Assembly: GCA_039804105.1 (NCBI GenBank)
Contig: JBDRZU010000001.1
Coordinates: 1,024,001-1,088,000, forward strand
Reading direction: 5' to 3'
DNA from: a candidate division WOR-3 bacterium
Lineage (GTDB): Bacteria; Hydrothermota; 32-111
DNA length: 64,000 bases
Numbering within the stretch: position 1 is the first letter of the stretch; every line of letters starts with the position of its first letter. Position numbers and translations under genes: made by a program. Shown one piece after another: positions 701-14,994 of the stretch. A model generated the notes under the pieces. It ran no database searches and was not told where the DNA came from. It saw only the letters and a program-made list of their open reading frames with translations.

Positions 701-708
701 TTTTCCTC

Positions 709-1143: not shown

Positions 1144-1155
1144 AAAAAACTCCTT

Positions 1156-2451
1156 TTATCTAATTTTCATTAAATTTTCATAACCATTTTTTTCAAAATC
1201 TTTTATATATTTTTCTTTATCATTAACTAAAACTTTCGAAATTTTAAGTAAACCTCTACCCACATTAGTTTCACCACCTATTGCATAGATTCCATTATCT
1301 ATTTCTCTCAAAACTAACATCAGAAGTTCAATATATGAATTCATTAAAGATTCATCTTTTTCTTTTAAAAAAATTTTCAACTTTGTTTTACCATTAAAAC
1401 ATGGTTCATTACAAAACAAAGCACTTTCAATATTTCCTCCTGTAAATCTATCAATCCTGATCCTTGTGTTTGGGATCAATTTGCCGTTTTCTATAACACT
1501 TTCTTCGAAAACAATTTTTGATGGTTTGCTTGTTTTATCGCTTTCTTTAACATAGCCAAATAAATCGTTAATAACTTTTTCAGCATCTTTATTTAGTTCT
1601 TTCAAAACCTGATAACATGAACTTCTAAAAAAACCAGCCCAACTTGTTCCTGGGATAATTGGCCTTCCGTTACTTTGGATTTGTGTTGCATCAACATCTT
1701 CTTCAATTTTATACTCTCTGATCAAAATAGAGTAAGGAATATCAAAAAAAACTTCGATTTTACAAATGTCGCTTTTATCAAGATTAAAAATTTTATGATT
1801 CAAATCTTCGTATCGGATATTTTCCTTTATAGAATTCCATTGAAAATTAATCCACTCTTTGATATTTTTAGAAACATCAACCTTTTGAATTTTTTCATCT
1901 TGTAAAATTACTTTTCCTAATCCTCTATTTGTTTTCGCGCCAAAAGAAATTTCACCATTTTTTAAAGAAGAAATGATTATATAAATAATTTCTTCTATTT
2001 CTTTTTCCTTATATAAAATGTTTTCTCTTAGAACAACTTCTAACCTTAATAAAAATTTATTTGAAACATCAACAATTTCATAATCAAATTTACTTTTATC
2101 AATAGATGTTTTTGTTTCGTAATCAATTGATACTCCTTCCCTAACTTTATTTTTTTCTTTCTCACAGACATTTCCATCATAAAACTTGAAAATACTTTGA
2201 TTACCAACATCACCATTTTCATCGATTAAATTTCCAAAACAATAATCGATTAAATCATCTTTAATACAATTTTTCAAGAAAGATCTTATTTTGCCTGCAA
2301 TGGTTGTTGCTGGTACAAATATTTTGCCTTCTCCATCTCTAACAAAGTCAATATCAGTTAATTCGTCTTCCCCATTTCCAATTAATATAGGAGAAATTGC
2401 TTCCAAAATTCCCTTAATATAATAAATTTTACATATTTTGTTTTCTTTCAT
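1156..2451 (-). CDS. cas7: Cas7-Cas7 double RAMP (Csm3-like) of type III-D
   Basis: Two RAMP units: SPILIG...VPATTIAG...FGAKTNRGLG and IPGTSWAG...RIDRFTGG...IGGETNVGRG. Confidence 0.88.
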   Translation of the reverse strand: MKENKICKIYYIKGILEAISPILIGNGEDELTDIDFVRDGEGKIFVPATTIAGKIRSFLKNCIKDDLIDYCFGNLIDENGDVGNQSIFKFYDGNVCEKEKNKVREGVSIDYETKTSIDKSKFDYEIVDVSNKFLLRLEVVLRENILYKEKEIEEIIYIIISSLKNGEISFGAKTNRGLGKVILQDEKIQKVDVSKNIKEWINFQWNSIKENIRYEDLNHKIFNLDKSDICKIEVFFDIPYSILIREYKIEEDVDATQIQSNGRPIIPGTSWAGFFRSSCYQVLKELNKDAEKVINDLFGYVKESDKTSKPSKIVFEESVIENGKLIPNTRIRIDRFTGGNIESALFCNEPCFNGKTKLKIFLKEKDESLMNSYIELLMLVLREIDNGIYAIGGETNVGRGLLKISKVLVNDKEKYIKDFEKNGYENLMKIR

Positions 2452-2460
2452 TTTTGCTCC

Positions 2461-4560
2461 TTATTTTTTACTTTTGTAAATTAAAAGAGTAAACAAATTA
2501 CTAACATAAAATTTATAAAATTCTAACTTTTTCTCTTCAGTTAATTCACCCAATTCTTTAATTAAATTTTGAAATTCTTTGTTTTCAATAAAATTATTAA
2601 TATCTATTGTTATATTAGAACCTTGATTACTCATCCATAAATACGCTTTTAACTTTTCCAATTCTTTTACTCTACTTTTCCCCATTTTTTCCAACTTTGA
2701 TTTTAATTCAGATAAACTTTCCGATGTTTGGAAAATATTGTTTAATCTATATAAAAAACTTTTATTTATCTTAATTGGAGCATTATTTATTTTTTTCATA
2801 GCAGTTGAAATCAATATTTCTTTTAATTTTTCTTCAAATAAATATTTTTTTATTGCTTTAAATTCTGGGCATTCAACAGAAAATTCAGTATTGATATTTT
2901 TTTCAATATATTGTTTGTTTAACTTTTTATTTCCATGATAGTTTAAAATTATTTGTCCAAAACCTTCATTTGTCCTTTCTCCAAAACCTTTTAGTATATC
3001 TAATTTATTAATTTGAAAAGTTTTATTGTTTTTAATAATTATTTCACTACCTGCAGATATACATTCAATTTGTTGTTTCGGTAAACCCCACACACTTAAA
3101 AATCCTCCAACAAATTTTGTTTTAATAAAAGATTTTACAATAACTAAATCATTAAAATCAACTTTAAATCTTTCACTTAATTCTTTTTTTAAAATGTTTA
3201 AATCATTTGTAATATACCCAGTAGTAGGGTTTCTTAAAATTATATCACTTTTAAAAGTGAGCACTAAATTTGAATTTTTTTCTATTTGCTTAAGATTTTC
3301 AATTAGTTTGTTAAGTTTTATTTCTAAAATGTTTAAACTTCCATATTGAGAATTTTTGGACCTTCCTAAGTAAATAACTCCATTTTCATTAAGCAAATCA
3401 AGTAAAATTTTTAAATATTTATATTTACCAATTATTGTTCCAACAAACTCATTATCTTCTTTTAAACATTCATATTGAAAAAACTCTCCTTCTTCTTTTG
3501 ATGATTTTCCTAAAGATCTATCAACTGGTCTTTTGTGATGATAATTTATTTCTTTTTCTAAATTTTTTATATATAAATTTTCATTTTCAATAGATACCAA
3601 ATCTGAAACAGTTCCTTTCAAAATTTTATTATCATTCTCATTAAAGGTTAAATCAACAATATCATCAGAATCTTTTATCTTTTGTATCGATAATGGACAA
3701 GGGATGTATTCTCTATTATTTTCCTGAATGTAAAAGTTATTAAAAATAACTTCTTTTTTTAAAAATAGATTCGTAAAAAAATTGTCTTTTCCTTTTTTCT
3801 GTAAATATTTATTAGCCAAAAATCCTAAAATAAAACTACCTGGAATAAAATTTTCACTTTTTTCTTTTTTAATGAAGTTTGTATTGACTATTAAACCCTC
3901 TTTTGCTATCCCTCTTATACTAATCTCATAAAGATCTTCATCATTATATTTTGGATAATTTATTTGTAATTTAACTTCATTTTTAGATTCAATTTCTTTT
4001 ATCTCTTCAAGAAAAATTTCTCCAAAACCTCTATTTCTTTTAAGTCCCATAGATCTTGTAATTTTTAATAAATCATTTATAAAACTTTTATATTTCTCAT
4101 CAAAATCAATTTTAAAAACAAATTCTAAATTTTTCTTCAAAACTCTTGATGTTCTCAAAGAATTTTTTAAAGCTACTCCATTTTCATCTATTGAAGTTTG
4201 ATTTCTTAAATAAGTATAGTAAGAGATTATTCTTTCTTTATTAAAAAGAGTTTTATCTTTTTGACTTTTTATATTGTTTTTAATATTTTCATAGTTATTT
4301 ATATAAGCGTTTGATATTCTTAGATTACCAAAAACCTTATCACCACTTTTGCCAAACAAATAATCTATATCTTTTTTTTCAATTTTATAACCATTATCCA
4401 AAAGTTCCATAGCATTTTCTTTTAATAAACCTTTTATTCTCTTCGCTGGGATATAAGGAATTCCAAATTCATCATAAAAAACATCTGTATCTATTATTCC
4501 TGAAAGTCCTTGACCTGAATAAGGTATCGTATCTGATAATAATTTAATTTTTATAAACAT
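2461..4560 (-). CDS. csx10: Csx10-like RAMP fusion (Cas7-Cas5, with a probable helical Cas11-like C-terminus)
   Basis: GIPYIPAKRIKG...MGLKRNRGFG, IPGSFILG...LGRSKNSQYG, AGS...GFGERTNEGFG, then a helical tail; directly after cas10. Confidence 0.85.
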   Translation of the reverse strand: MFIKIKLLSDTIPYSGQGLSGIIDTDVFYDEFGIPYIPAKRIKGLLKENAMELLDNGYKIEKKDIDYLFGKSGDKVFGNLRISNAYINNYENIKNNIKSQKDKTLFNKERIISYYTYLRNQTSIDENGVALKNSLRTSRVLKKNLEFVFKIDFDEKYKSFINDLLKITRSMGLKRNRGFGEIFLEEIKEIESKNEVKLQINYPKYNDEDLYEISIRGIAKEGLIVNTNFIKKEKSENFIPGSFILGFLANKYLQKKGKDNFFTNLFLKKEVIFNNFYIQENNREYIPCPLSIQKIKDSDDIVDLTFNENDNKILKGTVSDLVSIENENLYIKNLEKEINYHHKRPVDRSLGKSSKEEGEFFQYECLKEDNEFVGTIIGKYKYLKILLDLLNENGVIYLGRSKNSQYGSLNILEIKLNKLIENLKQIEKNSNLVLTFKSDIILRNPTTGYITNDLNILKKELSERFKVDFNDLVIVKSFIKTKFVGGFLSVWGLPKQQIECISAGSEIIIKNNKTFQINKLDILKGFGERTNEGFGQIILNYHGNKKLNKQYIEKNINTEFSVECPEFKAIKKYLFEEKLKEILISTAMKKINNAPIKINKSFLYRLNNIFQTSESLSELKSKLEKMGKSRVKELEKLKAYLWMSNQGSNITIDINNFIENKEFQNLIKELGELTEEKKLEFYKFYVSNLFTLLIYKSKK

Positions 4561-4575
4561 AATTTATCTCCTTAT

Positions 4576-6087
4576 TTAAATATTTTCCAAAAATTCCATA
4601 ATTTCGATTGCATCATAGTATGGCGTTATTTTTTCTTCAGTAAAAATTTTATTTGAATTATCATAAGTTGGTAAACAAAAATTTCTACTATTTAAAAAGT
4701 TTATGTAAAATTCAACATCTTCTTTTGATTTTATAAGATAGGAACGCAACTTTTTTATTTTATTTTTTGGTTTATTATTAAAATCGTTAACTAATTTTTT
4801 TAAATTATTAAAATTAAATTTTTCCAATATTTTTTCACCACCTATATAATATGGCCTCCAAAGCAAATTATACGAATCATAGCCTTCTTTAGGTTCTGGT
4901 TTTTGCATATTTGGAACAGAATAAATTTTATTTCTTAATGTTTTAAGATCCGTTGTTATTCCTGAAAAAACAATATGAAAATCTATCCAACTACCTATAT
5001 AATTTAATTTATAATAACTTGAAATTCTTTTTCCTTTTTCCTTTGCACTTTTACATAATTCTTCTGCCAATTCATATCCTCTATAAAATGGAAAATGGGC
5101 TTTTACCAAAGCAACACCAGCAGATGCGGTTAAAGTTAATTCTTTACCATCAATTTTTATCCTTTCTTGTTCAATATTTTTAAGAATATCTTCCGCAATA
5201 CTTAAGCCATATTTACCTTCACAAATTAGGGTAATATCATCCCCTCCAAAAATTATAGGTCTAATTTTTATTTTATTATTGGCTATAAAATGCTTTTTAT
5301 TTTTCATTTTTTTTAAAGTTTCTGAAAACGCTTTTTCATAAATTTTATTTATATCAAATGATATTTTTTTAATTAATCGAATAGAATCTTTAAAATCTTT
5401 TGAATTTTGTAATATTCCTTTAATAAAATTACCCATACTATTTCCATCAATATGAATATAGGCAAGGTGTCCATCTTCTTTACCTCTGAATTTTTCTATA
5501 TTTTTTTCAAAAGTCAAACCATCAAGAACTTCTTTAAATTTTTCTTCAAAAATATTAATTTCTTCTTCTCTCCTCATTAAATATGCTGGTTTTGAAATAT
5601 AACCATCTTCATCTTTATAATAAGCGGGTAGATTATCCAAAAAACTTTCTCTCGTTATTGATATTCCAAGAAGTGATGTCTTTTTAGGTAACTTATTTTT
5701 TCTTATATTCGCTTGTTTTATTAACTCATCAAAATCTTTTTGATAATCCTGTAAATTAGTTTCTTTATATGAAACTGCGAAAGAAACAAGACCATAAGTA
5801 TAATCATAAAAATTTTTAGACAGTTTTTTAGTAAAATTTATTGCGCTTTCCTTATCATTGAACATTAAAAGTAAATTTCCTCCTCCAGAAAATATTATTT
5901 TGCCTTCTTTTGAATCTGATTCAAATCCTTTGTCAAGATCAATTTCTGTCACCCCCAGACTTTTTAAATTTTCATTAGAAAATAATTTTGAAACGATGGA
6001 AGATGCTCCAATATTTTCACGCATTTTTTTTGAAAGAAAAATAAAATTCTGAATCCCTGTCATATCATAATAGGCCAATGTCTTCAT
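4576..6087 (-). CDS. cas10: Cas10 (Palm cyclase intact, no N-terminal HD nuclease domain)
   Basis: DMTGIQNFIF, FSGGGN (palm1), HIDGNSMG and IFGGDDIT (palm2), ASAGVA, PFYRGYELAEELC. Only 503 aa, starting directly at palm1. Confidence 0.93.
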   Translation of the reverse strand: MKTLAYYDMTGIQNFIFLSKKMRENIGASSIVSKLFSNENLKSLGVTEIDLDKGFESDSKEGKIIFSGGGNLLLMFNDKESAINFTKKLSKNFYDYTYGLVSFAVSYKETNLQDYQKDFDELIKQANIRKNKLPKKTSLLGISITRESFLDNLPAYYKDEDGYISKPAYLMRREEEINIFEEKFKEVLDGLTFEKNIEKFRGKEDGHLAYIHIDGNSMGNFIKGILQNSKDFKDSIRLIKKISFDINKIYEKAFSETLKKMKNKKHFIANNKIKIRPIIFGGDDITLICEGKYGLSIAEDILKNIEQERIKIDGKELTLTASAGVALVKAHFPFYRGYELAEELCKSAKEKGKRISSYYKLNYIGSWIDFHIVFSGITTDLKTLRNKIYSVPNMQKPEPKEGYDSYNLLWRPYYIGGEKILEKFNFNNLKKLVNDFNNKPKNKIKKLRSYLIKSKEDVEFYINFLNSRNFCLPTYDNSNKIFTEEKITPYYDAIEIMEFLENI

Positions 6088-6096
6088 CTCTCCTCC

Positions 6097-8472
6097 TTAT
6101 TCATAAATCTTTTTTCCAATCAATTCTATTAACAGATCATTCATTCCTGTTTTAGTATATATATTCAATCTCTGTTTACCACTTTTGGTGACTATCCAGT
6201 AAGAAACACCCTTTTCACCTATCATCTTTTCAAATTCAAGATGGTTTTCATCAACTTTACATTTTCTCATCTCATCGAGGATAAATTCCGTAATCAGGTT
6301 TCTTCCAATTCTGTATATTCTTTTAATAATTTCTCTGATATCTTTATCTGTTATATCATTGATTCCACTGAAACCATCGCCCCATAAAGTTGAATGGCTT
6401 TTTTTCTCTCCAATTCTTATCGGAACTTCTTCCTGATCAATTATATAACTCTTATAATAATCAAAAATCATCTTACCAACAGGAGAATCTGTAAAACTTT
6501 TTATGTTTTTATCGTTGTTAAGTAATATTCTAAAATTTTGTGGCAAATTATTTTTAAATAAATTTTTTGCTCTTTCATAGTCAGTTTCATTTTTTATTTC
6601 CTGTATCAATTCATAATACTTCTCATAAAGTTTGAAATCAAACTCAATTGGAATTTCGGGAAGTTTTACAATAGAATTAAAATCCTCAAAAACATAGTAA
6701 ACTGGAACCTTGTATAGTACTGCAAGTATTGTTGCATAAGCGATCTCTGCTTTGAATCCACCGGTTGCAAGTATTTCAATGTTTCTTCCAGTATTATCGA
6801 TTATGTTCGTAACTTTTTTGATAAAATTTATCAGCCCTCTTGTTTCAAATTCATTTGCATCATATTTTAATCCCTCAATTTTTACCCTTTCAACATTTGC
6901 TTTATATTTTTCAAGAATATACTTTTCAAGTAATTTACACGACTTCTCTCCCTCTTCAGTATCACTTTCTATTAAGTAAAACCAGGAGTTTTTATTTACT
7001 TCTTTTTTTAACTTATGGATTGTATTTGTTTCTGCTGAGACCTTTTCTGGAGGATTTGAAAGCATAAAATCCAAAATATGTTCGAAAGTTTCCTCTTTAC
7101 CAGGACACATCTTTCTAAAATTTCCAAACACCGCAGTTCCAACTGTTACAATATAACTTTTCATATCTTTTCTCCTTAAAAGTTTTCCTTTTTTAAAAAT
7201 CAGTTCTTTCCCATTCTCCCCAATTATCGTTCTAACTTCCTTTTTCAATTTTTGTTTCACATTTTTAATCGCATCCAAATCTCCATGAACAAGCAAAACA
7301 TTTTTCGGAGTAGTTCTGTTGACATAAGATATTATACCTTTCAAACTTGAATGGAGTGACAAAGGAAAGTGTTCAACATTGACTTTTTTCACATACTCCT
7401 TCTCATCTATATATATAACTCCATTTTTTTCAGTTTTTAAAAGTTCATATCCTAAAGTTCCTTTTGCAAGATAACCTGTGAAAAGAACAGAGGATGTCTC
7501 ATCCTCAATAAGATGTTTTAAAATTTGATATGAAGGAGTATGAGGATTCAGCATTCCACTTGAAGCAATTATTATCGATTTTCGAGGTATAGAATCAATT
7601 TTTTCAATATATTTAGATTTTAACGATTTAGAATGACATTCTCTATAAATCGGGGTTATTTTATTTGCCATTCCAACCGTATATATCTTTTTAGTTAACA
7701 ATTCTTTACTTCTTCTTTCAAAAAGAAATAGTATTTCCTGTGTTTTTCCAAGTGCAAAAGCAGGTATCAAAACAATTCCGTTTTTTTCTAATGTTTTATT
7801 TATCGATTCTATAAATCTACTTTCATATTTTTCTCTCATCTTTTCTTCATATTCTGAGTTTCCATTTGTTGTTTCTGTTATCATAATATCAACATTTTTT
7901 TTATAATAGTTTAATTTTCCTGTCATAATATTGTTCGAAACAGAAAAATCACCTGTATAAATCAAAGAGTTCCCTTTGTTATCAAAAATATGTATTCCAC
8001 AACTCCCAATAACATGTCCTGATTTAAAAAGTTTAAAATTTATATTAGAATTCAATTGATTAACCTTGTTCAGTTCAATACATTCTATCTTTCTGTCAAG
8101 TTCAAAAAGATTTAATTTATTAAAATAAATTTCATAGAACCTTTTATTATAGTCATTCATCATTAAAACCTTTGCACTATCAAGAAGCATGATTTTATAG
8201 ATTTCTTTCGAATTCTGACTCATCACAATTCTTTTCACATCAAAAATTTTTTCTATAACAGGCAATGAACCAAGATGATCAAGATGGGGATGAGATACAA
8301 ATAAGAGATCAATTTTTTCATCTTCAATTTTATGAAGTAAAGGTAATTTGTTATATCCAGATTTATTTGGATCCATACCACAATCAAGCATAATTTTTAT
8401 TCCTTCCCAATCAACATAATAAGAGTTTGCCCCAATCTCCTGTGCCCCGCCAAGCGGCATAATTTTTATCAA
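6097..8472 (-). CDS. MBL/beta-CASP nuclease fused to an APE2256/Crn1-like CARF domain, wHTH-like segment and an unassigned C-terminal domain
   Basis: LGGAQEIGAN, LDCG, SHPHLDHLG (HxHxDH), GHVIG, YTGD, ETT, SLHSS, LVHGD. From about aa 437: IVTVGTAV, SAETNTI, SDTEEG, ATGGFKAE, YYVFE, typical of APE2256/SSO1393 CARF. Confidence 0.85.
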   Translation of the reverse strand: MIKIMPLGGAQEIGANSYYVDWEGIKIMLDCGMDPNKSGYNKLPLLHKIEDEKIDLLFVSHPHLDHLGSLPVIEKIFDVKRIVMSQNSKEIYKIMLLDSAKVLMMNDYNKRFYEIYFNKLNLFELDRKIECIELNKVNQLNSNINFKLFKSGHVIGSCGIHIFDNKGNSLIYTGDFSVSNNIMTGKLNYYKKNVDIMITETTNGNSEYEEKMREKYESRFIESINKTLEKNGIVLIPAFALGKTQEILFLFERRSKELLTKKIYTVGMANKITPIYRECHSKSLKSKYIEKIDSIPRKSIIIASSGMLNPHTPSYQILKHLIEDETSSVLFTGYLAKGTLGYELLKTEKNGVIYIDEKEYVKKVNVEHFPLSLHSSLKGIISYVNRTTPKNVLLVHGDLDAIKNVKQKLKKEVRTIIGENGKELIFKKGKLLRRKDMKSYIVTVGTAVFGNFRKMCPGKEETFEHILDFMLSNPPEKVSAETNTIHKLKKEVNKNSWFYLIESDTEEGEKSCKLLEKYILEKYKANVERVKIEGLKYDANEFETRGLINFIKKVTNIIDNTGRNIEILATGGFKAEIAYATILAVLYKVPVYYVFEDFNSIVKLPEIPIEFDFKLYEKYYELIQEIKNETDYERAKNLFKNNLPQNFRILLNNDKNIKSFTDSPVGKMIFDYYKSYIIDQEEVPIRIGEKKSHSTLWGDGFSGINDITDKDIREIIKRIYRIGRNLITEFILDEMRKCKVDENHLEFEKMIGEKGVSYWIVTKSGKQRLNIYTKTGMNDLLIELIGKKIYE

Positions 8473-9875
8473 CGTAACCCCTCTATTGTTATTTTTAATA
8501 ATTCAAAAGATTTTTCTAATTCTTCAAAAGACATGTTTAGGTTATATTTTTTTAAGTAATTGAGTATCAAAAATTTTGCTAATTTTTTTATATCTTCTTG
8601 CTCTTCTTTATTAATAATTTTATCTCCATGAGCCATATTTGAACAGTTTCGTATCTTTGAACAATTAAAAATCCATTTAACATCTATATTTCTTTCTTTA
8701 CTCAAAATATCGTTATTCAAAAGTTTTAATATAAAAACATCATCCATTAGTGCTGTTTTAGGTGGTAAACCAGTTCCTTTATATTCTTCACCAAAAACTT
8801 TTCCAGCAATTTCTTTAAACTTTCCAAAATCTATTTTTATCTTTGAATAATCAGGCTTAGAAGTATCAAATTCATAATCTTTTTTTAAAACTGATTGAAA
8901 AATCATTTCTACTGTTCGATATAACAAAAATGATGAAATTTCATACCGTTCTTTTTTTTCATAAAAAATTCCTAAAAAATAATGATTGAAAATTTTATAT
9001 TCCTCAGTTTCTTTAATGTTTTCCAGTAAATTTACATTAATTTCTAATTTACTTCTTAGATTATTATCTAATTCTTGAAATTTGTTTAATATTTGTTCAT
9101 ATAATTTTTTTGATTCTTCAAAATTAAAATCAATCCAGTTTTTTTGTGCTTGAGATAATAATTTTATTAATTCAATATTATATTGTTTTCTAAAAGTAGT
9201 CTTTTCTTCATATTCTTTTATCAATTTACATGCTTCATTGTAATTGCCTGAATTAAAATAATTTAAAACATCCAACAAAACCTTATCCCCTGAGAGATAA
9301 AAAGGATTATAAATAATTTTTAAAAATTCTGAAGAAAAAAAAGGTTTATTACTTTCTCTTACATATCTTCTATAATCTATATAACATGCGTCTATATTAA
9401 AAATAGCACTGATCATTCCAGATATAGCGCTCATTGTTTTTTTCCCACCTGTTAAATCAATTAAAATTATTTTTTCTTTATTTGAAAGGTATATGTCTAC
9501 AATTTTGTTATAAAAATTAGTTATATCTCTTTCATCTACTTCATGAAATGATATTTTTTCCTTTTCATATTCAATTTTTTCAAGAATAATATCTCTATAT
9601 TTTGAACTTTCCTTAGTAACAATTAAATAAATTGCTTCCTTCGGTTTTACTAATGAACCAGAAAGAATTGAAGTTGCAGGAGAAAGTCCAACTAAAGAAA
9701 TCAAAATATCATATTCTTTTTTTACCTCTTTTTTATTTTCGTCAATAAATTTTTTTAGATATAAAGGTAAAAACTCATTAAAATAAAATCTATCTTTTTC
9801 TTTAAAATCTTTTATTTCATTATATTTTTTGTTCATTTCGTCCATTAATTTTTCAAAATTTTTATCCACCTTCAC
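8469..9875 (-). CDS. CARF-HEPN ancillary ribonuclease (Csm6/Csx1-like, TIGR02710-like)
   Basis: SLVGLSP and IDLTGGKKTMSA CARF motifs; C-terminal RNCSNMAHG HEPN-type motif. The original start is probably GTG at 9875; an in-frame alternative start at 9944 arises from a 69-bp duplication/insertion. Confidence 0.85.
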   Translation of the reverse strand: MKVDKNFEKLMDEMNKKYNEIKDFKEKDRFYFNEFLPLYLKKFIDENKKEVKKEYDILISLVGLSPATSILSGSLVKPKEAIYLIVTKESSKYRDIILEKIEYEKEKISFHEVDERDITNFYNKIVDIYLSNKEKIILIDLTGGKKTMSAISGMISAIFNIDACYIDYRRYVRESNKPFFSSEFLKIIYNPFYLSGDKVLLDVLNYFNSGNYNEACKLIKEYEEKTTFRKQYNIELIKLLSQAQKNWIDFNFEESKKLYEQILNKFQELDNNLRSKLEINVNLLENIKETEEYKIFNHYFLGIFYEKKERYEISSFLLYRTVEMIFQSVLKKDYEFDTSKPDYSKIKIDFGKFKEIAGKVFGEEYKGTGLPPKTALMDDVFILKLLNNDILSKERNIDVKWIFNCSKIRNCSNMAHGDKIINKEEQEDIKKLAKFLILNYLKKYNLNMSFEELEKSFELLKITIEGLR

Positions 9876-9969
9876 TCCTTTTTTTCTATCATACCAAAAC
9901 GTAAGCAAGCGCGTAATAAGCGATTTCCCAATCAACACCTTCACTCCTTTTTTTCTATCATACCAAAAC
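9867..9969. repeat. 34-bp perfect direct repeat flanking a 35-bp unique insert
   Basis: CACCTTCACTCCTTTTTTTCTATCATACCAAAAC at 9867-9900 and 9936-9969; insert at 9901-9935. Confidence 0.95.
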
Positions 9970-10681
9970 CCATTGAATTTTTTTCTCCTAAACCAGAATC
10001 GTAAGCAATATTTATAAGGTCTGTATCTCCTTCAAGAGTTATTTCATCAAAAATTCCTTTCAATTTAATATCTTTGAATTTTATTAATTTTGTATATGTA
10101 TATTTTTTAGAAGCATAGACATTTACTCCTTTACCGGTATATTTTTCACCAAAAAGAATCTCATATTTTTTTGCAAGATTATTATTCACTCTAATATTAA
10201 ACTCATCATCTATTTTCGTAAGATATTCAACTCTTCCATTTTCATAAAGTTTTGACACAACTATTGGTGAATTGCATATAAATTTATCTTTTCCTTTAAA
10301 TTTTGGGGTTCCTCTTATTTTTATTTCCTGTATTTTAAAATACTCATGTTTTATCTCTAAATAGCCCAATTCATAAAAACCTAAAGCGATTATTTCCAAT
10401 AATCTATTCAATGGAGATGATATAAACCATTTAAAACAACCATTTGACAGTTTCAAGTCAAGATCTTTCACTTTGAAAATATTACCTTTTAAAAATGAAT
10501 AGGTAAAAAGTTTGATATTTTTGTGTTCGTTTTCTTCATAAAAACCATCATCATGTATTTTTTTTGCAAGATCTTTATCGACAACATTTATTGATTTATA
10601 AATCGCAGAAGTCAGATAATAATTGTAGTTAAGTGGAATAGACCTTAACTGGTCATTACAACAAATAATTTCTATTCTCAA
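9941..10681 (-). CDS. cas6: CRISPR-associated endoribonuclease Cas6
   Basis: IPLNYNY, HDDG, KLFTYS, SPIVVS and the C-terminal glycine-rich loop GLGEKNSMGFGMI. Confidence 0.95.
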   Translation of the reverse strand: MRIEIICCNDQLRSIPLNYNYYLTSAIYKSINVVDKDLAKKIHDDGFYEENEHKNIKLFTYSFLKGNIFKVKDLDLKLSNGCFKWFISSPLNRLLEIIALGFYELGYLEIKHEYFKIQEIKIRGTPKFKGKDKFICNSPIVVSKLYENGRVEYLTKIDDEFNIRVNNNLAKKYEILFGEKYTGKGVNVYASKKYTYTKLIKFKDIKLKGIFDEITLEGDTDLINIAYDSGLGEKNSMGFGMIEKKE

Positions 10682-10692
10682 AATTTCCCCTC

Positions 10693-12435
10693 TTATATTA
10701 AGTTTATTAAATCGCTCAATTCCCTTATTTTTTCTATATTTTTTGCATTCAAAAATTTTATGTATCTACAGAAAGTTTGTTTAAAAAGTTTCAGTCCTTT
10801 TAAATTTTTTATTATATCTTCCATAACATCTTCATCTTTGTATTTGATATAATATGTTAACAATCCTCTTATTCCAAAAAGCAAATAATCTTCTTTTTCG
10901 AATTCTTTCATTTTTTTAAAAAAGTAATAATAAAGTTTTTTCGACATCTCTTGATCAGTTTCAAGAAATGAAAATGCATAATACTCAATTGCAAGATAAT
11001 ACATGTAATAGAATCTTGTGTCCTTAACTAATTCAAAGAAATCTTCCCACAAAAACTTCACTTCTTCTGATTTTCCAAGATGTGCATTCAATCTTATCTT
11101 CTCAAAATGGATAAAAACTTTCTGAATATTTTCAGGAGTTGCTTTTTTAAGATAATTTTCAGCAAGACCAATATATTTTTTAGAATTATTATAATTCCCT
11201 TTTAAAGTATTCAATTTTGCAAGATAACAGCAAACTCTTGATACATCAGAAGTAAGATACTTTTTACAAAACTCAAGATTATTTAAAAGATATTTTTCTG
11301 CTTTTTTAAAATCCTTATTGTGTATTAAGTATTGAGATAAAGTTCCATAGGTTGATATAGAAAGGTGTTTTCCTGTATATTTTTTTTCTTCCAAGTTCAA
11401 TTTCAAAAGTTTTAAGCCCTCTTTAAATCTGTAAATGTCTTTTAAAAATACTGCATAAACATTGTTAAATTCGATAGAAATATTATTATACTCAAATAAT
11501 TTTTCTTTTATAAGTTCATTTTTTGTATCATTTGCTCTTTTAAAATAATTTTCAGCAGTTAAAATATCTCCCGATTGATTATAATGTAATGCCAATCTTG
11601 ATAGAACAAGAAAGTAATAATTCTTTGACTTTATATCCTCTCTATTTTTAAGATATGCCTCAAGATTATTGTAAATTGGAAGATAGGAATTTTTATCACT
11701 CTTCAACAGATAATTTTCAGCAATATTGAACATTCTTTCAACACCAGAGAGAAATCTTTTATCGACTGTTTCAGTGTAATCTCCAAAGACATTTTTTATT
11801 ACTTCTTTAAAATTTTTCAATTTTTTATCAGGATAAACAAAGATTCCCTCTTTTATTTCCTTATCAAAACAATATTTTTTTTCTTCTATAAAATCAACTT
11901 CAAGCAGATTACCTTCAAAATCGAGTGCTCCAGTAAAACAAAATTTATCTTCCACATATCTATTCGTTACTGCCAAATATAAAAGCACTGCTATTGGAAG
12001 TTCGAGCGATTCACAATCAAGAGAAAAAATCTTTTCTATCTCATCAAAATTTTCAAGTATTATTTTGTTAGGATTCAAATCAATGATTATCTCTTTTTGG
12101 GCAAAATATTTTTCAACAACCACAACTGCTTTTCTTATAACATTTGCTATGTTTTCCTTATAAATGATTGTTTCATTTTCAGAAAAATTGACTTTTAACG
12201 GAATAAGAACCGGATACTTTTGATTTTTATCTATTATTACCACAGGAGCAAAAACATTATATTCCAAATGTGGATTTAAAATATCTACACTTTTACTCAA
12301 ATTTTTCAAAATTGTCTTCATATCATATGTTTTCACTTCATTTAAAAGTTTATCTATTATTAATTTTGAATGACTATAATTTTGAAATTTCAAAAGTAAA
12401 TTCAAATATTCAAATGACCTTAAATCTGATCTCAA
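10693..12435 (-). CDS. Lon-type (S16-like) Ser-Lys protease domain fused to a C-terminal TPR-like helical repeat region
   Basis: DCE-S143-LELPIAV...FCFTGALDFEGNLLEVDFIEE-K186 aligns by eye with Lon DGPSAG...AMTGEI...GxVxPIGGxxEK, with the same 43-residue Ser-Lys spacing. About aa 230-580 is helical repeats (LALHYNQSGDILTAENYFKRA; LAKLNTLKGNYNNSKKYIGLA). No AAA+ or SAVED domain visible. Confidence 0.75.
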   Translation of the reverse strand: MRSDLRSFEYLNLLLKFQNYSHSKLIIDKLLNEVKTYDMKTILKNLSKSVDILNPHLEYNVFAPVVIIDKNQKYPVLIPLKVNFSENETIIYKENIANVIRKAVVVVEKYFAQKEIIIDLNPNKIILENFDEIEKIFSLDCESLELPIAVLLYLAVTNRYVEDKFCFTGALDFEGNLLEVDFIEEKKYCFDKEIKEGIFVYPDKKLKNFKEVIKNVFGDYTETVDKRFLSGVERMFNIAENYLLKSDKNSYLPIYNNLEAYLKNREDIKSKNYYFLVLSRLALHYNQSGDILTAENYFKRANDTKNELIKEKLFEYNNISIEFNNVYAVFLKDIYRFKEGLKLLKLNLEEKKYTGKHLSISTYGTLSQYLIHNKDFKKAEKYLLNNLEFCKKYLTSDVSRVCCYLAKLNTLKGNYNNSKKYIGLAENYLKKATPENIQKVFIHFEKIRLNAHLGKSEEVKFLWEDFFELVKDTRFYYMYYLAIEYYAFSFLETDQEMSKKLYYYFFKKMKEFEKEDYLLFGIRGLLTYYIKYKDEDVMEDIIKNLKGLKLFKQTFCRYIKFLNAKNIEKIRELSDLINLI

Positions 12436-13252
12436 TCATCTCCCCACTTTTTAAAGATTTTACTTTGATAATATTTTCTTTTTCAAAAGATGGAGTCAAA
12501 ATAAGTTCTTTATCTTCTAATTTTTTATTATCTATTAAAAATTTACCTTTTATACTTTTACATATAATTTTTTTGTCTTCAAACTTCAGAAACAAAATAT
12601 TTCCATCATTAAACTTTATTTCTCTCATTTTTTGTAATTTTTCTATATTCTTTATAATTTCGTCTTTTTCTGGTTGTTTCTTTTTTGCTGCCAAAACAGG
12701 TTTTAAAAAATCAACAGGTATTTCCCAGACAAAAACCTTATCTTTTTTAAATTCTTCTATGTAAGTTTTCAAATGGATATATGGAGAAATAAATTTGAAT
12801 TCATCTTCTTTTATTATTTTAAAAACATCATTTAAAATTATATTCAAATTCAAATCTTTCAAATTTGTATCTTCAATATATTTTGAAAAAACGAACGCCT
12901 CTTTCGGCAAAGAAATTTGCACTGGCGCAAAATATATTTTTTGTTTTAATTTTAGGGAGTCATAACACAACTCAGTTTTTCCTTCATATTCTGGGATAAA
13001 TATAACCTCATTATCTAAAATTTCCTTTACAAAAACAAATTTTTCAGGAACTGATTTTAGAATTGGGTTATATAGTGAATAAACTTTTTGGGGTGAGATT
13101 TCAGGAGGACTCTTTCCAATTAAAAATTTTTCAAGCCAATCGTTTAAAGTTTTTAAATACAATTTTTCTTTCTTTTTATCAAATAAAATCTTTTCACCTG
13201 ACTTAAAAAGTATATATTTTTCAAAATCATTAAATTCAATCTGATTTTTCAT
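12410..13252 (-). CDS. Hypothetical protein, putative CalpT-like anti-sigma factor / protease substrate
   Basis: 280 aa, between a sigma-like gene and the Lon-TPR gene (overlaps the latter). N-terminal segment reminiscent of a PemK/MazF-like fold; VLAA at aa 186-189 precedes a ~90-aa beta-rich domain. Confidence 0.5.
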   Translation of the reverse strand: MKNQIEFNDFEKYILFKSGEKILFDKKKEKLYLKTLNDWLEKFLIGKSPPEISPQKVYSLYNPILKSVPEKFVFVKEILDNEVIFIPEYEGKTELCYDSLKLKQKIYFAPVQISLPKEAFVFSKYIEDTNLKDLNLNIILNDVFKIIKEDEFKFISPYIHLKTYIEEFKKDKVFVWEIPVDFLKPVLAAKKKQPEKDEIIKNIEKLQKMREIKFNDGNILFLKFEDKKIICKSIKGKFLIDNKKLEDKELILTPSFEKENIIKVKSLKSGEMIEIRFKVI

Positions 13253-13313
13253 AAACTCCTCAATCTTTCTTTCAATAAATATAAACTAAAAAATTTTCAA
13301 AAAACAAAAATTT

Positions 13314-14243
13314 TTATTTATTTTTGTAATTTTTTAAAATATTTTTTAAATCATCACAAGAGAGAGAATTTTTTACAACAAATTCTTCTATTTTTTTTTC
13401 AATCTTTTTTACATAAAACTGTATATTCTGTGGAGAAGTTTTTAATTCCTCTGCAATCTTTACAATTGTTATATCTTGTAAAAATTTAGATATAATACTT
13501 TTTTCATAATCGTTAAACAATGATTCAAATTTTTCATAATAAAAATTCCAATCCATTTCTTCTGTTTTTAATACAATTTCGTTTTCTCTTATACTACCAT
13601 TACCTTGTTCTTGTTCATCATCAATGATATTCACAACATCATTAAAAGCATATTTCAATTCATCCATTACTTTTTTTATCGATATTTTTCCATTTTCTCT
13701 GTATATCAAATAATCAAGATATTCTTGTAAATCTTTTGTTTTAAATAGTTGCTTGTTTCCTCTTAATTTTGGCTTTTGCGGAATTCTATTCTTTTCGAAA
13801 TTTCTAATCTTATTTTTATTGATCAAAATTTCTTGATCAAATTTAATATCTTTTTTAATTCCATAAAATTCTATTAAAATTTTCTTTATAGTAAAAAAAA
13901 GTTTTTTTTCTGGCTTTTTAGAAGTAATATCTTCGACATAATTTTCAAACATTCTGTTGATTAATTTTTTAAAACCTGTTTCATCAGAAAGATGACCTTT
14001 TTCAATTTTTCCCTTAAAGTAATTTAGATTGTTGTATATTTTTTTAGAAATAAAATTATATATCTCTGATTTAGCAAGATCTTCATTTTCTTTATTATAT
14101 ATTTCAAAAATGATGTAGTATTCGGGATTATGGTAAAACTTTTGTAAAAGATATTCTGTTAAAATTGTTATAAATTGTTCATTTAATTTTTTTTTCTGGG
14201 GGGTTTCTTTATTTTCAATTATTTTTTTTAATAATTCAAACAT
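13314..14243 (-). CDS. ECF-like sigma-70 family factor (CalpS-like position)
   Basis: Region-2-like DLAKSEIYNF...GFKKLINRMFENYVEDI and region-4 HTH FNDYEKSII...ITIVKIAEELKTSPQNIQFYVKKIEKKI. Start moved to ATG 14243 because the ORF-track TTG at 14282 is the -35 box. Confidence 0.65.
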   Translation of the reverse strand: MFELLKKIIENKETPQKKKLNEQFITILTEYLLQKFYHNPEYYIIFEIYNKENEDLAKSEIYNFISKKIYNNLNYFKGKIEKGHLSDETGFKKLINRMFENYVEDITSKKPEKKLFFTIKKILIEFYGIKKDIKFDQEILINKNKIRNFEKNRIPQKPKLRGNKQLFKTKDLQEYLDYLIYRENGKISIKKVMDELKYAFNDVVNIIDDEQEQGNGSIRENEIVLKTEEMDWNFYYEKFESLFNDYEKSIISKFLQDITIVKIAEELKTSPQNIQFYVKKIEKKIEEFVVKNSLSCDDLKNILKNYKNK

Positions 14244-14253
14244 AAATATAAAA

Positions 14254-14282
14254 AATATAAAGTATTTTTTTACTATTGTCAA
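14254..14282 (-). promoter_or_regulatory. Sigma70-type promoter for the sigma/anti-sigma/Lon-cas operon
   Basis: TTGACA (14282-14277), N17, TATATT (14259-14254); ATG about 10 nt downstream, so near-leaderless. Confidence 0.6.
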
Positions 14283-14314
14283 TATATTTTATTTTTTCGA
14301 GAAAAACAATCAAG

Positions 14315-14893
14315 GTTTCCATACCAAAAATGGTGCGATTAAGACCGAGAACGATCCGTTCTCGTCGATTTATAGAATCTTAAAGTTTCCATACCAAAAA
14401 TGGTGCGATTAAGACAAAAAACAATGAAAATTAAAAAAATCATTTCACTTATGTTTCCATACCAAAAATGGTGCGATTAAGACATTTTGAACAACATCGA
14501 CGAAGTTATTTACATCAACCCGTTTCCATACCAAAAATGGTGCGATTAAGACCTAAGATAGGAAGATAGGAAGAGAACAAAAGGAGGCAAAATGTGTTTC
14601 CATACCAAAAATGGTGCGATTAAGACACAACCCCTCTGCTGAGGGCTTCATCACATCTTCTCGAAAGTTTCCATACCAAAAATGGTGCGATTAAGACATT
14701 GATGGATTTATTACTGATTTTTTATGGTCTGATGAAGTTTCCATACCAAAAATGGTGCGATTAAGACGGGGTGAGGAGTTTAGGTACTCCTCTGACTACG
14801 ATAAAGGATTTTGTTTCCATACCAAAAATGGTGCGATTAAGACATAAAATAAAATAAAATAAAAAAATAGGCACCACCGGGTGCGATTAAGAC
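14315..14893 (-). CRISPR. CRISPR array: 8 identical 31-bp repeats plus one half repeat; 7 full spacers (37-45 bp) and a 36-bp leader-proximal segment
   Basis: The + strand repeat GTTTCCATACCAAAAATGGTGCGATTAAGAC starts at 14315, 14385, 14453, 14522, 14596, 14667, 14737 and 14813; GGTGCGATTAAGAC only at 14880-14893. The minus-strand form ends in ATGGAAAC (typical 3' handle). Confidence 0.97.
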
Positions 14894-14913
14894 AGGATCA
14901 TAAATTTAATTTT

Positions 14914-14941
14914 ATTATATACTTATTTTAAAATTTGTCAA
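14914..14941 (-). promoter_or_regulatory. Consensus sigma70 promoter in the CRISPR leader
   Basis: TTGACA (14941-14936), N16, TATAAT (14919-14914), pointing into the array. Confidence 0.75.
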
Positions 14942-14944
14942 GAT

Positions 14945-14994
14945 TTTTCTGTCGATCGGTGGTCGTGCAAAAAACCCGGGGGATCGACAGAAAA
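14945..14994. promoter_or_regulatory. 13-bp perfect inverted repeat in the CRISPR leader
   Basis: TTTTCTGTCGATC (14945-14957), 24-nt loop, GATCGACAGAAAA (14982-14994); GC-rich island in an AT-rich leader. Confidence 0.7.

Follow-up and report, generated by a model that had tools for sequence, protein, structure and literature searches.

The question raised by this locus is what a protease-like protein, a partner of no assigned family and a sigma-like protein do together at the head of a type III CRISPR operon. The three genes (hereafter the trio) lie in the window, the whole 64,000-nt stretch analysed here (positions 1,024,001 to 1,088,000 of contig JBDRZU010000001.1, from a candidate division WOR-3 bacterium, genome G000), where they occupy the interval between a CRISPR array and cas6. 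As an earlier note on this DNA had claimed, they are three co-oriented ORFs on the minus strand that head a III-D operon: the sigma-like gene (13314-14243) is followed after 61 nt by the gene for a 280-aa protein (12410-13252), which overlaps by 26 nt the gene for a 580-aa protein (Lon-TPR; 10693-12435), and this in turn is separated by 11 nt from cas6 (9941-10681). The cas6 gene overlaps csx1 (CARF-HEPN; 8469-9944) by 4 nt, and the minus strand then carries a gene for a beta-CASP-CARF7 fusion (6097-8472), cas10d with a GGDD motif (4576-6087), csx10 (2461-4560), cas7 (1156-2451), csx19 (709-1143) and a second cas7 (2-700) that runs past the window edge. Pfam, NCBIfam and PADLOC matches to cas6 and to the remainder of the module within the window (2-9944) assign the operon to type III-D. 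Beyond the window, the same locus has genes for a 588-aa Cas7, Cas4, Cas1 and a CARF7-DUF2103 protein, and a 39-repeat array.

The array next to the trio (14315-14893, minus strand) consists of eight full 31-nt repeats, GTCTTAATCGCACCATTTTTGGTATGGAAAC on the minus strand, and one degenerate, leader-proximal repeat that forms a terminator-like hairpin. Its leader (14914-14990, minus strand) comprises a palindrome, CTGTCGATC..GATCGACAG (14990-14949, with the core CCCCCGGGTTTTTTGC), and directly after it a perfect promoter, TTGACA-16-TATAAT (14941-14914). The same leader element, with compensatory changes in the arms, precedes the array of a second trio locus (L001, in genome G001; see below), and the core motif was present at the leaders of all three arrays of G000 and both arrays of G001. 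A sigma-70-like promoter, TTGACA-17-TATATT (14254-14282, minus strand; 11 of 12 matches), lies directly 5' of the sigma-like gene, whose orthologue at L001 is likewise preceded by a TTGACA promoter. Because the longer TTG start at 14282 coincides with the -35 hexamer of this promoter, the ATG at 14243 is the better start of the gene.

The 580-aa protein was analysed using an AF2 model (pLDDT 89.9, pTM 0.84) and a family alignment (A3) of ten members with 31-90% identity, including five distant ones (P0010-P0014). On the basis of the model it can confidently be divided into a three-helix bundle, a Lon protease fold and a TPR superhelix resembling those of Rap, NprR and LGN. The bundle (aa 1-53; 12277-12435, minus strand) is modelled as helices 2-16, 20-33 and 37-53, and its residues Y10, L14 and N19 are invariant in the alignment. 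The Lon (S16) fold (aa 54-222; 11770-12276, minus strand) was matched by VIA-align to four solved Lon or Lon-like domains, those of Thermus thermophilus RadA (5h45; Z 14.9, rmsd 3.0, 149 residues aligned), Escherichia coli Lon (1rr9; Z 14.6, rmsd 3.0, 152 residues aligned), yeast Lon (7sxo; Z 14.6) and Methanocaldococcus jannaschii Lon (1xhk; Z 14.1). Sequence matches to this domain included 1xhk (E 0.0013-0.008), PF13541 (E 5e-4) and LonB, and the family profile next best matched the phylum's canonical Lons along with a Lon-repeat protein. Residues Ser143 (codon 12009-12007) and Lys186 (codon 11880-11878) fall on the catalytic Ser-Lys pair of 1xhk in alignments and do not vary in any of the ten family members, making them candidates for a catalytic dyad; E145, G169 and G175 are also invariant. 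LonA/LonB (MEROPS S16), RadA/Sms and ComM have the same fold and the same 43-residue spacing of Ser and Lys, but the Lon-like domains of RadA and ComM are inactive, unlike the conserved dyad found here. The Ser motif of Lon-TPR, D-C-x-S-x-E-L, is not the one that canonically surrounds the catalytic Ser of Lon, and the protein has neither an AAA+ module nor a LAN domain and is fused to TPRs. Searches of Pfam, NCBIfam and PADLOC gave no match to AAA+, CARF or SAVED on Lon-TPR, and comparison of the model with solved structures showed that a CARF/SAVED-type domain is absent.

The TPR superhelix (aa 232-580; 10696-11742, minus strand) comprises about 17 helices, and its structure matches were to the Rap protein of phage Phi3T (Z 22.7), LGN (Z 22.5), domain III of MalT (Z 22.4) and NprR (Z 21.9; Foldseek E 1.4e-5), with AimR and PlcR as further peptide- or polypeptide-binding TPR receptors, although sequence identity to the RRNPP and LGN TPRs was only 8-16% and Pfam TPR matches on the window protein were sub-threshold. 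The assignments of the earlier note thus hold for this protein: an N-terminal Lon fold with the S143/K186 dyad, no AAA+, CARF or SAVED domain, and a C-terminal region of about 350 aa that is TPR-like rather than a cryptic SAVED or CARF. Conservation within the protein is also highest in the superhelix, whose mean pairwise identity across the family is 39% compared to 31.5% for the Lon domain. It has 43 invariant positions, many of them polar (including N257, N272, R280, N317, N324, N325, D333, R400 and R448), and the polar ones may form a groove. That the TPRs are conserved most across the family fits a conserved ligand. Literature searches found no description of this Lon-TPR architecture.

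No family could be assigned to the 280-aa protein (12410-13252, minus strand) by searches of Pfam, NCBIfam, PADLOC, PHROG or PDB sequences. Its AF2 model is poor (pLDDT 46 overall, and 65-84 only for aa 210-280), and the layout it suggests is an alpha/beta part formed by roughly the first 170 aa, an unstructured linker (aa 171-195) containing ..PVLAAKKKQPEK.. and a C-terminal beta-sandwich (aa 204-280), for which FHA- or Ig-like folds were matched weakly (highest Z 6.9). A part of about 22 kDa is followed by an alanine-rich linker with an LAA motif and a part of about 10 kDa, a layout like that of CalpT; CCaCalpT is reported to be cut in LAAA to give fragments of 24.3 and 10.9 kDa (10.1101/2024.05.08.593097). 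Its sequence matched neither of the CalpT domains, MazF/PemK and DUF2080, and a model this poor, with the first 200 residues effectively unmodelled, gives little basis for judging the fold; the protein could instead serve as a sensor or adaptor, or have an unrelated role.

In the 309-aa product of the first gene (13314-14243, minus strand), a GerE/sigma4-type HTH occupies roughly aa 245-295 near the C-terminus, the place that sigma4 takes in sigma factors, and the N-terminal two thirds have no assigned fold. The sigma-70 family was the best NCBIfam match for all five members of its family, with TIGR02937 (sigma70-ECF) giving a best E value of 4.1e-5 and every match sub-threshold (16.2 bits for the window protein against a cut-off of 42.9); GerE matched four of the five, and phrog_1740, annotated 'RNA polymerase sigma factor', matched with an E value of 3.8e-5. 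A PDB profile search found nothing, and hhalign comparison with the ECF and group-3 sigma factors of the same genome gave probabilities of 3-5%, with only the HTH aligned confidently (E 0.015 against the ECF sigmas). The earlier description of this protein as an ECF-like sigma factor is thus weakly supported by the consistent but sub-threshold matches and the HTH, and it is better described as a weakly sigma-like DNA-binding protein.

Lon-TPR is rare: an exhaustive search of 1.84 billion representatives found six clusters with the same architecture, and full-length matches to each of the three trio proteins occurred in the same 2 of 271 genomes from the phylum; consecutive locus tags or shared contigs tie the trio genes together in another two close relatives. 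The second genome, G001, is congeneric, and at L001 a diverged trio, cas6 and the same repeat head a type III-A (Csm1-5) operon; CRISPR linkage is documented only in one genus, from the neighbourhoods of two species representatives, with two near-identical contigs besides. The trio proteins of the two loci are 29-48% identical (sigma-like protein 29%, 280-aa partner 38%), compared to 62% for Cas6 and 88% for the product of a flanking housekeeping gene, indicating that two well-diverged versions keep the same place, heading type III operons of different subtypes. Outside the trio, only cas6 and the repeat are common to the III-D and III-A loci, with Cas10, Cas5 and Cas7 coming from different families. 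A close Cas6 was present only in the two trio-bearing genomes among 13 of the family, and the trio is tightly packed with cas6 at both loci. Thus, the three genes are co-inherited with cas6 and the repeat. The proposal of the earlier note that the TPRs sense the target-bound III-D complex is disfavoured by the III-A setting in G001, as a docking partner would need to be common to both complexes. As one module accompanies both III-D and III-A effectors, whatever it senses would not be peculiar to either subtype.

The reading that we favour, although it is tentative and we would rate it somewhat below an even chance, is that the trio is a proteolytic switch in which a Ser-Lys protease gated by its TPRs cuts the 280-aa partner and so controls the sigma-like protein. 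Lon-TPR would act as an ATP-independent Ser143-Lys186 endopeptidase, and its Rap/NprR/LGN-type superhelix would be a receptor that takes up a polypeptide in extended form, the likeliest candidates being a conserved stretch of either co-inherited partner and a signal peptide or protein that is itself conserved. Engagement of the receptor would lead the protease to cut the 280-aa partner, presumably its substrate, at a site predicted to lie in the linker (aa 171-195) between the alpha/beta part and the beta domain. If the partner holds the 309-aa protein, the cut would release or activate it, and this putative sigma factor would then alter transcription, probably of defence or cas genes. By analogy, the protease/anti-sigma/sigma logic of three type III precedents, CalpL-CalpT-CalpS, Csx29-Csx30-CASP-sigma and DdvA-DdvS, argues for this reading. 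In Myxococcus xanthus, the transmembrane TPR-CHAT anti-sigma DdvA and the ECF sigma DdvS are described as controlling a CBASS/type III-B island; like the trio, they couple a type III CRISPR locus with TPRs, a protease-like domain and a sigma factor, and they provide a precedent for expression control rather than effector function (PMC11506125). The TPR part of DdvA was also among the fold matches of Lon-TPR (8rot, Z 13.8). However, DdvA sits in the membrane, its anti-sigma domain is zinc-bound and its CHAT site is degenerate, whereas the trio proteins look soluble, have no recognisable anti-sigma domain and include a Lon domain with an intact dyad.

The nature of the trigger would distinguish this switch from several rivals. 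The trio is like CalpL-CalpT-CalpS in placing an ATPase-less Lon-type Ser-Lys protease beside a partner of about 33 kDa and a sigma-like protein at a type III locus, for which a transcriptional output is likely, and it could be a closer analogue still, in which a Cas10 product (cA3, cA4, cA6 or another nucleotide) bound by a cryptic sensor switches on cleavage and frees the sigma-like protein. Both loci encode a GGDD Cas10 together with CARF effectors (Csx1, the beta-CASP-CARF7 fusion and CARF7-DUF2103 at the window locus; Csx1 at L001), so that the cOA pathway is complete at each, and signalling by a messenger would account for the use of a single module with both subtypes. The sensor might be the N-terminal part of the 280-aa protein, residues 1-200 of which have no assigned fold, the TPRs or the three-helix region, and sensors other than CARF and SAVED are described in type III signalling (PMC11229360, PMC12669027). 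We nevertheless regard this as unlikely, given that Pfam, NCBIfam and PADLOC searches found no CARF, SAVED or other nucleotide-sensor match on the trio proteins and that the well-modelled Lon-TPR contains no such domain. CalpL has SAVED where Lon-TPR has a 350-aa TPR superhelix, and to our knowledge no TPR superhelix binds cOA. The nearest PDB sequence relative of the Lon domain was archaeal Lon 1xhk, with CalpL not retrieved at E values up to 10; the 309-aa protein, with its weak sigma signals, likewise differs from the ECF-like CalpS. A messenger-free alternative, in which the TPRs and bundle dock on a crRNA-loaded type III complex and target RNA activates the protease allosterically, is suggested by Craspase, where Csx29 joins a protease to a three-helix bundle and eight TPRs that are described as sensing the target RNA 3' end on Cas7-11, and where the locus also encodes an unassigned substrate-like protein and a sigma-like protein (PMC10028731). 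Type III-E is reported to derive from III-D (PMC12669027), and the Lon-TPR gene is translationally packed with cas genes. The parts are of the same three types but in the order bundle, protease, TPR rather than bundle, TPR, protease, the protease is a Ser-Lys Lon instead of a Cys-His CHAT, and the effectors are multi-subunit III-D or III-A complexes with active-looking cyclases instead of Cas7-11. No match to Csx30 or Csx31 was found, and Csx29 was absent among the best 50 matches listed in each of three structure comparisons, a result that is not decisive. Docking on complexes whose Cas10, Cas5 and Cas7 families differ is hard to square with the TPRs being the most conserved part at 31-48% identity, and we consider it quite improbable.

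Rap (including the phage Rap with pheromone), NprR, AimR and PlcR being among the best TPR matches, with Z scores of 20-22.7 over about 300 residues for the RRNPP receptors and LGN/Pins, Lon-TPR might instead bind a small secreted or phage peptide and tune CRISPR expression through the sigma-like protein, in a quorum- or arbitrium-like manner; one family member is named 'ComR tetratricopeptide domain-containing protein' in UniRef, and PF18710 is precomputed on member P0004. But scores just as high were obtained for LGN and MalT, whose ligands are protein segments or of other kinds, the spacings within the cassette (61 nt, a 26-nt overlap and 11 nt) leave no room for a pro-peptide gene, and none adjoins Lon-TPR, which, unlike the RRNPP receptors, carries a protease in place of an HTH or phosphatase output domain; with the Pfam TPR matches below threshold as well, such a system seems very unlikely. 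A more serious, though still doubtful, alternative is that there is no sigma switch at all and the 309-aa HTH protein acts on the cas operon as a conventional repressor or activator, with Lon-TPR and the 280-aa protein doing another job: an abortive-infection protease with its inhibitor or chaperone, a protease for Cas processing or turnover, or a self-contained defence cassette located by chance in the CRISPR loci of this genus. The C-terminal HTH alone is reasonably supported in the 309-aa protein, the trio has its own consensus sigma-70-type promoter, and its CRISPR context is known from one genus only. This is countered by the sigma-70 family being the best NCBIfam match for five of five members, with a PHROG sigma family in agreement, by strict co-inheritance of the three genes, as in CalpL-CalpT-CalpS and Csx29-Csx30-CASP-sigma, and by a position between array and cas6 that is kept across 29-48% divergence. 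On the proteolytic switch reading, then, the trio looks like another form of a device known from type III CRISPR systems, the transcription switch operated by a protease.

The three genes proved to be tightly packed on the minus strand of an AT-rich window (GC 23-37%), immediately after a CRISPR array (14893-14315; eight full 31-nt repeats and one degenerate leader-proximal copy), in the order 309-aa sigma-like gene (13314-14243), 280-aa partner gene (12410-13252) and 580-aa Lon-TPR gene (10693-12435). Downstream of this trio lie cas6, csx1 (CARF-HEPN), a beta-CASP-CARF7 fusion gene, cas10d, csx10, cas7 and csx19, and beyond the window are genes for a 588-aa Cas7, Cas4 and Cas1, a 39-repeat array and a gene for a CARF7-DUF2103 protein. 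Successive genes from the trio through cas6 to csx1 are separated by 61 nt, a 26-nt overlap, 11 nt and a 4-nt overlap. With Cas10d, Csx10, Csx19 and Cas7 all present, the assignment of the module to type III-D in the earlier note was correct. A TTGACA-17-TATATT promoter was found upstream of the 309-aa gene, and the TTG start chosen by the ORF finder at 14282 turned out to be its -35 box, so the ATG at 14243 is the right start. The trio had been correctly delimited, and the codons of S143 and K186 in the Lon-TPR gene had also been correctly placed.

Several other features of the region were recorded. The fusion gene in the III-D operon (6097-8472, minus strand) encodes a 791-aa protein in which an MBL/beta-CASP nuclease (aCPSF1 match, E 8.6e-64; type VII Cas14 model NF045584, E 1.5e-57 over the N-terminal half) is joined to a CARF7 sensor (PF09651, E 1.6e-29); the protein has the appearance of a beta-CASP effector gated by cOA. 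The array beside the trio is the smallest of three in this genome (G000); one on the flanking stretch G000:C1:1012001-1024700 (at 6223 to about 9100 of that stretch, between the CARF7-DUF2103 gene and cas1) has 39 copies of the same repeat, and one at G000:C1:1092099-1095114, about 4 kb past the window end, has at least 20. On the first of these stretches (525-1514, minus strand), a few kb beyond the CRISPR locus, a gene for a 329-aa protein matched the PADLOC model RTasDUF1848 (labelled DRT; E 1.1e-42), and the region may be a defence island.

Single-sequence searches with the 580-aa protein gave only weak signals, namely the Lon-like domain family PF13541 (E 5e-4), LonB TIGR00764 (E 0.034), TPR_12 (E 6e-4) and the Lon protease domain of M. 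jannaschii (PDB 1xhk, E 0.008), in whose alignment S143 and K186 fell on the catalytic serine and lysine. An AlphaFold2 model built from a 10-sequence family alignment was of high quality (pLDDT 89.9, pTM 0.84) and comprised three helices at the N-terminus (aa 2-53), then an alpha/beta domain (aa 54-222) and finally about 17 further helices (aa 232-576). The model was compared with known structures by an all-against-representatives search, by Foldseek and by a second-look alignment. In the first of these, residues 54-222 matched the Lon-like domain of T. thermophilus RadA (5h45; Z 14.9; 149 residues aligned at rmsd 3.0), the Lon proteases of yeast (7sxo; Z 14.6), E. coli (1rr9; Z 14.6; 152 residues aligned at rmsd 3.0) and M. 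jannaschii (1xhk; Z 14.1), and ComM (Z 13.8), and residues 223-567 matched MalT domain III (Z 22.4), LGN (Z 21.9), phage Rap (Z 21.8; Z 22.7 for phage Phi3T Rap in the second-look alignment) and NprR (Z 20.0; Foldseek E 1.4e-5); AimR and PlcR were also among the matches of this part, the Rap, NprR, AimR and PlcR rows spanning Z 15-22.7. Thus, the N-terminal domain adopts a Lon fold, as the earlier note had supposed, and the C-terminus is a TPR superhelix rather than a cryptic SAVED or CARF domain. The same note had seen no AAA+, CARF or SAVED domain, and this was borne out: Pfam, NCBIfam and PADLOC searches of the 580-aa protein gave no SAVED or CARF match, the C-terminal 350 residues being modelled as TPR, and no AAA+ module was matched, only the 53-residue three-helix bundle standing ahead of the protease domain. 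Nor was there a Pfam match to CHAT, the protease domain having the Lon fold. CalpL and Csx29 were absent from the best 50 matches of each of the three structure comparisons, which has no bearing on relatedness since the N-terminal domain was modelled as part of the whole protein.

The family detectable from this protein is extremely rare and very small. A word-indexed search of 5.8 billion proteins returned five relatives. When 1.84 billion cluster representatives were screened exhaustively by hmmsearch, using a profile of the N-terminal 225 residues (E up to 0.001), seven proteins emerged, six of the same architecture (572-589 aa, matched over more than 200 residues) and one with repeated canonical Lon protease domains (E 7e-6). 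Relatives were also sought in viral contigs, plasmids and phages, and none was found there. In the 10-sequence alignment, whose members are 31-90% identical to the window protein, S143, E145, G169, G175 and K186 were invariant. When seven of the ten rows were retained, one for each diverged lineage (leaving out three that were near-identical to the window protein or to another member, P0004), mean pairwise identity was 25% for the three-helix bundle, 31.5% for the Lon domain and 39% for the TPR region, which had 43 invariant positions, many of them polar, with N272, R280, N317, N325, R400 and R448 in their number. Such high conservation of the TPR region would suggest that its ligand is itself conserved and not a phage protein evolving at speed, a phage protein being one of the inputs that the earlier note had considered.

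The 280-aa partner was much less informative. Neither Pfam, NCBIfam, PADLOC and PHROGs nor the sequences of the PDB assigned it to a family, and a profile search of the PDB with its family gave one non-significant match, to SMI1/KNR4 (E 0.13). Its AlphaFold2 model was poor (pLDDT 46.4) apart from a C-terminal beta domain (aa 210-280, pLDDT 65-84) preceded by an unstructured stretch (aa 171-195), and Foldseek returned only MHC-like rows, which were meaningless. VIA-align placed aa 204-280 among generic beta-sandwiches, with FHA- or Ig-like matches of Z up to 6.9. The ESM Atlas yielded nothing usable (model pLDDT 0.41, best feature score 0.77). A predicted complex of the sigma-like and 280-aa proteins scored 0.03 and 0.00 (mark 0.32) and, the fold of the partner being uncertain, is evidence for neither side. 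The layout of the protein, about 22 kDa, a linker containing PVLAAKKK and about 10 kDa, recalls CalpT, of which the CCaCalpT protein is described as being cut in LAAA into pieces of 24.3 and 10.9 kDa, and in which the N-terminal domain is described as MazF-like and the C-terminal one as DUF2080 (10.1101/2024.05.08.593097); this is a resemblance only. PemK or DUF2080 domains gave no Pfam match in the 280-aa protein at E up to 1, and a search of both genomes that carry the trio with the models for these CalpT domains (PF09853 and PF02452) gave no match up to E 10.

The 309-aa protein, which had been taken for an ECF-like sigma factor, is probably sigma-like. A C-terminal helix-turn-helix of the GerE/sigma4 kind was found in four of five family members (best E 6.4e-4), and TIGR02937, the sigma-70/ECF superfamily model, was the commonest NCBIfam match in all five (best E 4.1e-5); single members also matched FliA/WhiG (8.8e-5) and SigH (3.6e-4), and the window protein matched PHROG 1740, 'RNA polymerase sigma factor' (E 3.8e-5). 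However, every sigma-type score of the family fell below the curated cut-off. A profile search of the PDB with the family gave no matches, and comparison by hhalign with ECF and group-3 sigma alignments, built from the source genome and its relatives, gave E 0.008-0.015 (probability 3-5%) and aligned only the sigma4-like helix-turn-helix with any confidence, with no reliable alignment of sigma2. In the ESM Atlas the protein fell at 0.96 with unnamed clusters of 309-369 aa, one of which carried Sigma70_r2 on 14% of its members, a lead only. Because of the sub-cut-off scores and the alignment confined to the helix-turn-helix, we use the label 'sigma-like'; a C-terminus of the sigma4 type is supported, and the protein may be an ECF-like sigma factor as originally assigned.

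A second version of the trio was found on contig LGFX01000004 of 'candidate division TA06 bacterium 32_111' (G001), a genome of the same genus. This locus (L001) has the same chromosomal neighbours as the window, a flanking 387-aa protein being 88% identical, and a 26-copy array whose repeat differs from that of the window by one base. The gene order is sigma-like (330 aa), partner (279 aa), Lon-TPR (581 aa), cas6, Csm1 (HD and GGDD), Csm2, Csm3, Csm4, Csm5 and a different Csx1, an effector module of type III-A. Identity to the window proteins was 29% for the sigma-like protein, 38% for the partner, 48% for Lon-TPR and 62% for Cas6. At one chromosomal site, then, two well-diverged versions of the trio, cas6 and repeat stand at the head of effector modules that differ in subtype. 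Over window 1-14900 and L001 6100-19700, a III-D module in one species has its counterpart in a III-A module in the other, and array, trio and cas6 are kept (identity 29-62%); with this front end conserved, the effector module behind it has been swapped. The association of Lon-TPR with CRISPR thus held in both readable trio loci, each of which lies inside a type III operon with a GGDD cyclase, III-D in G000 and III-A in G001, both from one genus. Both loci also carry CARF effectors, and in both genomes the trio has its own consensus promoter of the sigma-70 type.

For every one of the trio proteins, full-length matches in a survey of 271 genomes from the phylum were confined to these two. Lon-TPR matches were found in 17 genomes and were partial only in 15; the partial matches came from canonical Lon proteins (771-788 aa) and from proteins with TPRs alone, and partial matches to the sigma-like protein were plain, generic helix-turn-helix proteins. 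Two of roughly nine TPR-only matches were examined and were unrelated cyclase-STAND-TPR proteins in ordinary neighbourhoods. Seen in the course of this check, contig G130:C30 (7620-17417) encodes three tandem paralogues of about 1,030-1,100 aa, each an adenylate/guanylate cyclase joined to a STAND-like AAA_16 ATPase and TPRs; they are unrelated to the trio. A close Cas6 was present only in the two trio-bearing genomes, of 13 in the family. According to source labels and contig data, the trio also occurs together in two further near-identical relatives.

The arrays themselves share a conserved leader element directly upstream of the -35 box (window 14949-14990; L001 6019-6060; G000:C1:1021080-1021095; G000:C1:1093599-1093614; G001:C13:56602-56617). 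It is a palindrome with arms CTGTCGATC..GATCGACAG in the window and CTGTCTA..TAGACAG in L001, the changes being compensatory, and a core of CCCCCGGG(A/T)TTTTTGC. The core occurs three times in G000 and twice in G001, every time adjoining an array of the same repeat, and the reversed-pattern control gave no occurrence; the element may serve as an operator or as a signal structured within the leader. The leader-proximal first repeat of the window array (14862-14893) is degenerate (GTCTTAATCGCACCCGGTGGTGC), and the pseudo-spacer after it consists of A and T only. With the adjoining T-run this repeat makes a hairpin resembling a terminator, and a perfect TTGACA-16-TATAAT promoter lies just upstream of the hairpin, an arrangement that may attenuate transcription of the 8-repeat array.

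The most likely reading of the trio, a tentative one, is that of a protease-operated transcription switch. A conserved partner or signal would have an extended segment that the TPR receptor captures; the Lon domain, with its Ser-Lys dyad, would then cut the 280-aa protein within its linker, as predicted near L187-A188-A189-K190, and the cut would free or activate the sigma-like protein. The promoter that the trio has in both genomes fits constitutive expression with post-translational control, and since GGDD cyclases and CARF effectors are kept at both loci, the trio would act beside the cOA pathway and not instead of it. A different view, which we consider rather unlikely, is that there is no sigma switch at all, the locus encoding either a helix-turn-helix regulator next to a protease and partner that are unrelated to it, or a defence cassette complete in itself.

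What the receptor would sense is constrained by the comparison of the two loci. The earlier note had proposed that the TPRs might dock on the target-bound III-D complex; the trio also heads a III-A operon in G001, which argues against docking specific to one subtype, so that of the original interpretation the Lon fold, the catalytic dyad, the TPRs and the embedding in type III operons stand and this part is disfavoured. Docking on the effector in the manner of Craspase is for the same reason quite improbable, the effector subtype having been swapped between III-D and III-A. The swap would be compatible with a diffusible messenger acting on a cryptic sensor, but no sensor domain is visible, and we regard this as unlikely. 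An input that has nothing to do with the effector would be consistent with the swap as well. The likeness of the modelled TPRs to those of RRNPP receptors, at the level of fold only, raises the idea of peptide sensing. However, the cognate pro-peptide gene adjoins the receptor gene in RRNPP systems and none lies beside Lon-TPR, where gaps of 61 and 11 nt and a 26-nt overlap up to cas6 leave no room for one, making this the least probable of the inputs, and very improbable.

If the switch reading is right, the trio would work like CalpL-T-S and Csx29-Csx30-CASP-sigma, but it belongs to neither system. Like CalpL, the window protein has an AAA+-less Lon-family domain with a Ser-Lys dyad; CalpL has a protease-fused SAVED domain as its cA4 sensor where Lon-TPR has a TPR superhelix, and the CalpT domains are absent by sequence from the 280-aa partner. 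Canonical LonA and LonB proteases differ in having an AAA+ ATPase module before the protease domain. In Csx29 of Craspase it is CHAT, a caspase-like Cys-His protease, that is fused to TPRs, and the effector is the single protein Cas7-11, whereas the trio loci have multi-subunit III-D (Cas10d, Csx10, Csx19, Cas7) or III-A (Csm1-5) complexes. Csx29 is described as having eight TPRs and a protease besides a bundle of three helices (PMC10028731). These are the same three kinds of parts as in Lon-TPR, in another order and with another protease, which suggests convergent assembly. The trio also recalls DdvA-DdvS, in which, according to PMC11506125, a TPR-CHAT anti-sigma controls a type III-B and CBASS island, and it is not a member of that system either. 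No Lon-TPR protein linked to CRISPR or to defence came up in full-text literature searches, and passages of a 2024 survey of type III effectors and of the 2025 CRISPR classification (PMC11229360, PMC12669027) mention only cOA-activated Lon and caspase proteases. The domain combination is rare and, as far as the searches reach, undescribed, and the trio would be a variant of the CRISPR-associated protease and sigma switch. Six clusters in 1.84 billion representatives is a rarity that fits the 'long tail' of CRISPR-linked genes.

RNA sensing by type III systems is coupled to proteases in two ways, by cyclic oligoadenylate binding to SAVED (CalpL, SAVED-CHAT) and by direct docking of TPR-CHAT (Craspase), and a Lon protease in which a TPR receptor replaces SAVED is a recombination of both solutions. 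It is possible, although on balance doubtful, that Lon-TPR represents a third class of CRISPR-associated protease: a predicted Ser-Lys protease gated by TPRs and not by cyclic nucleotides, acting beside an intact cOA pathway, able to move between III-A and III-D effectors along with cas6 and the repeat, triggered by a conserved cue, protein or peptide, that signals infection or crRNP activity (for example, one presented by Cas6 or the crRNA handle), and with a dedicated sigma-like factor as its output. If the input is indeed neither cOA nor effector docking, the trio would represent another signalling channel in CRISPR immunity and also another programmable protease scaffold. That cas6 and the repeat accompany the trio when effector modules change between III-D and III-A amounts to a natural experiment on what the trio senses.
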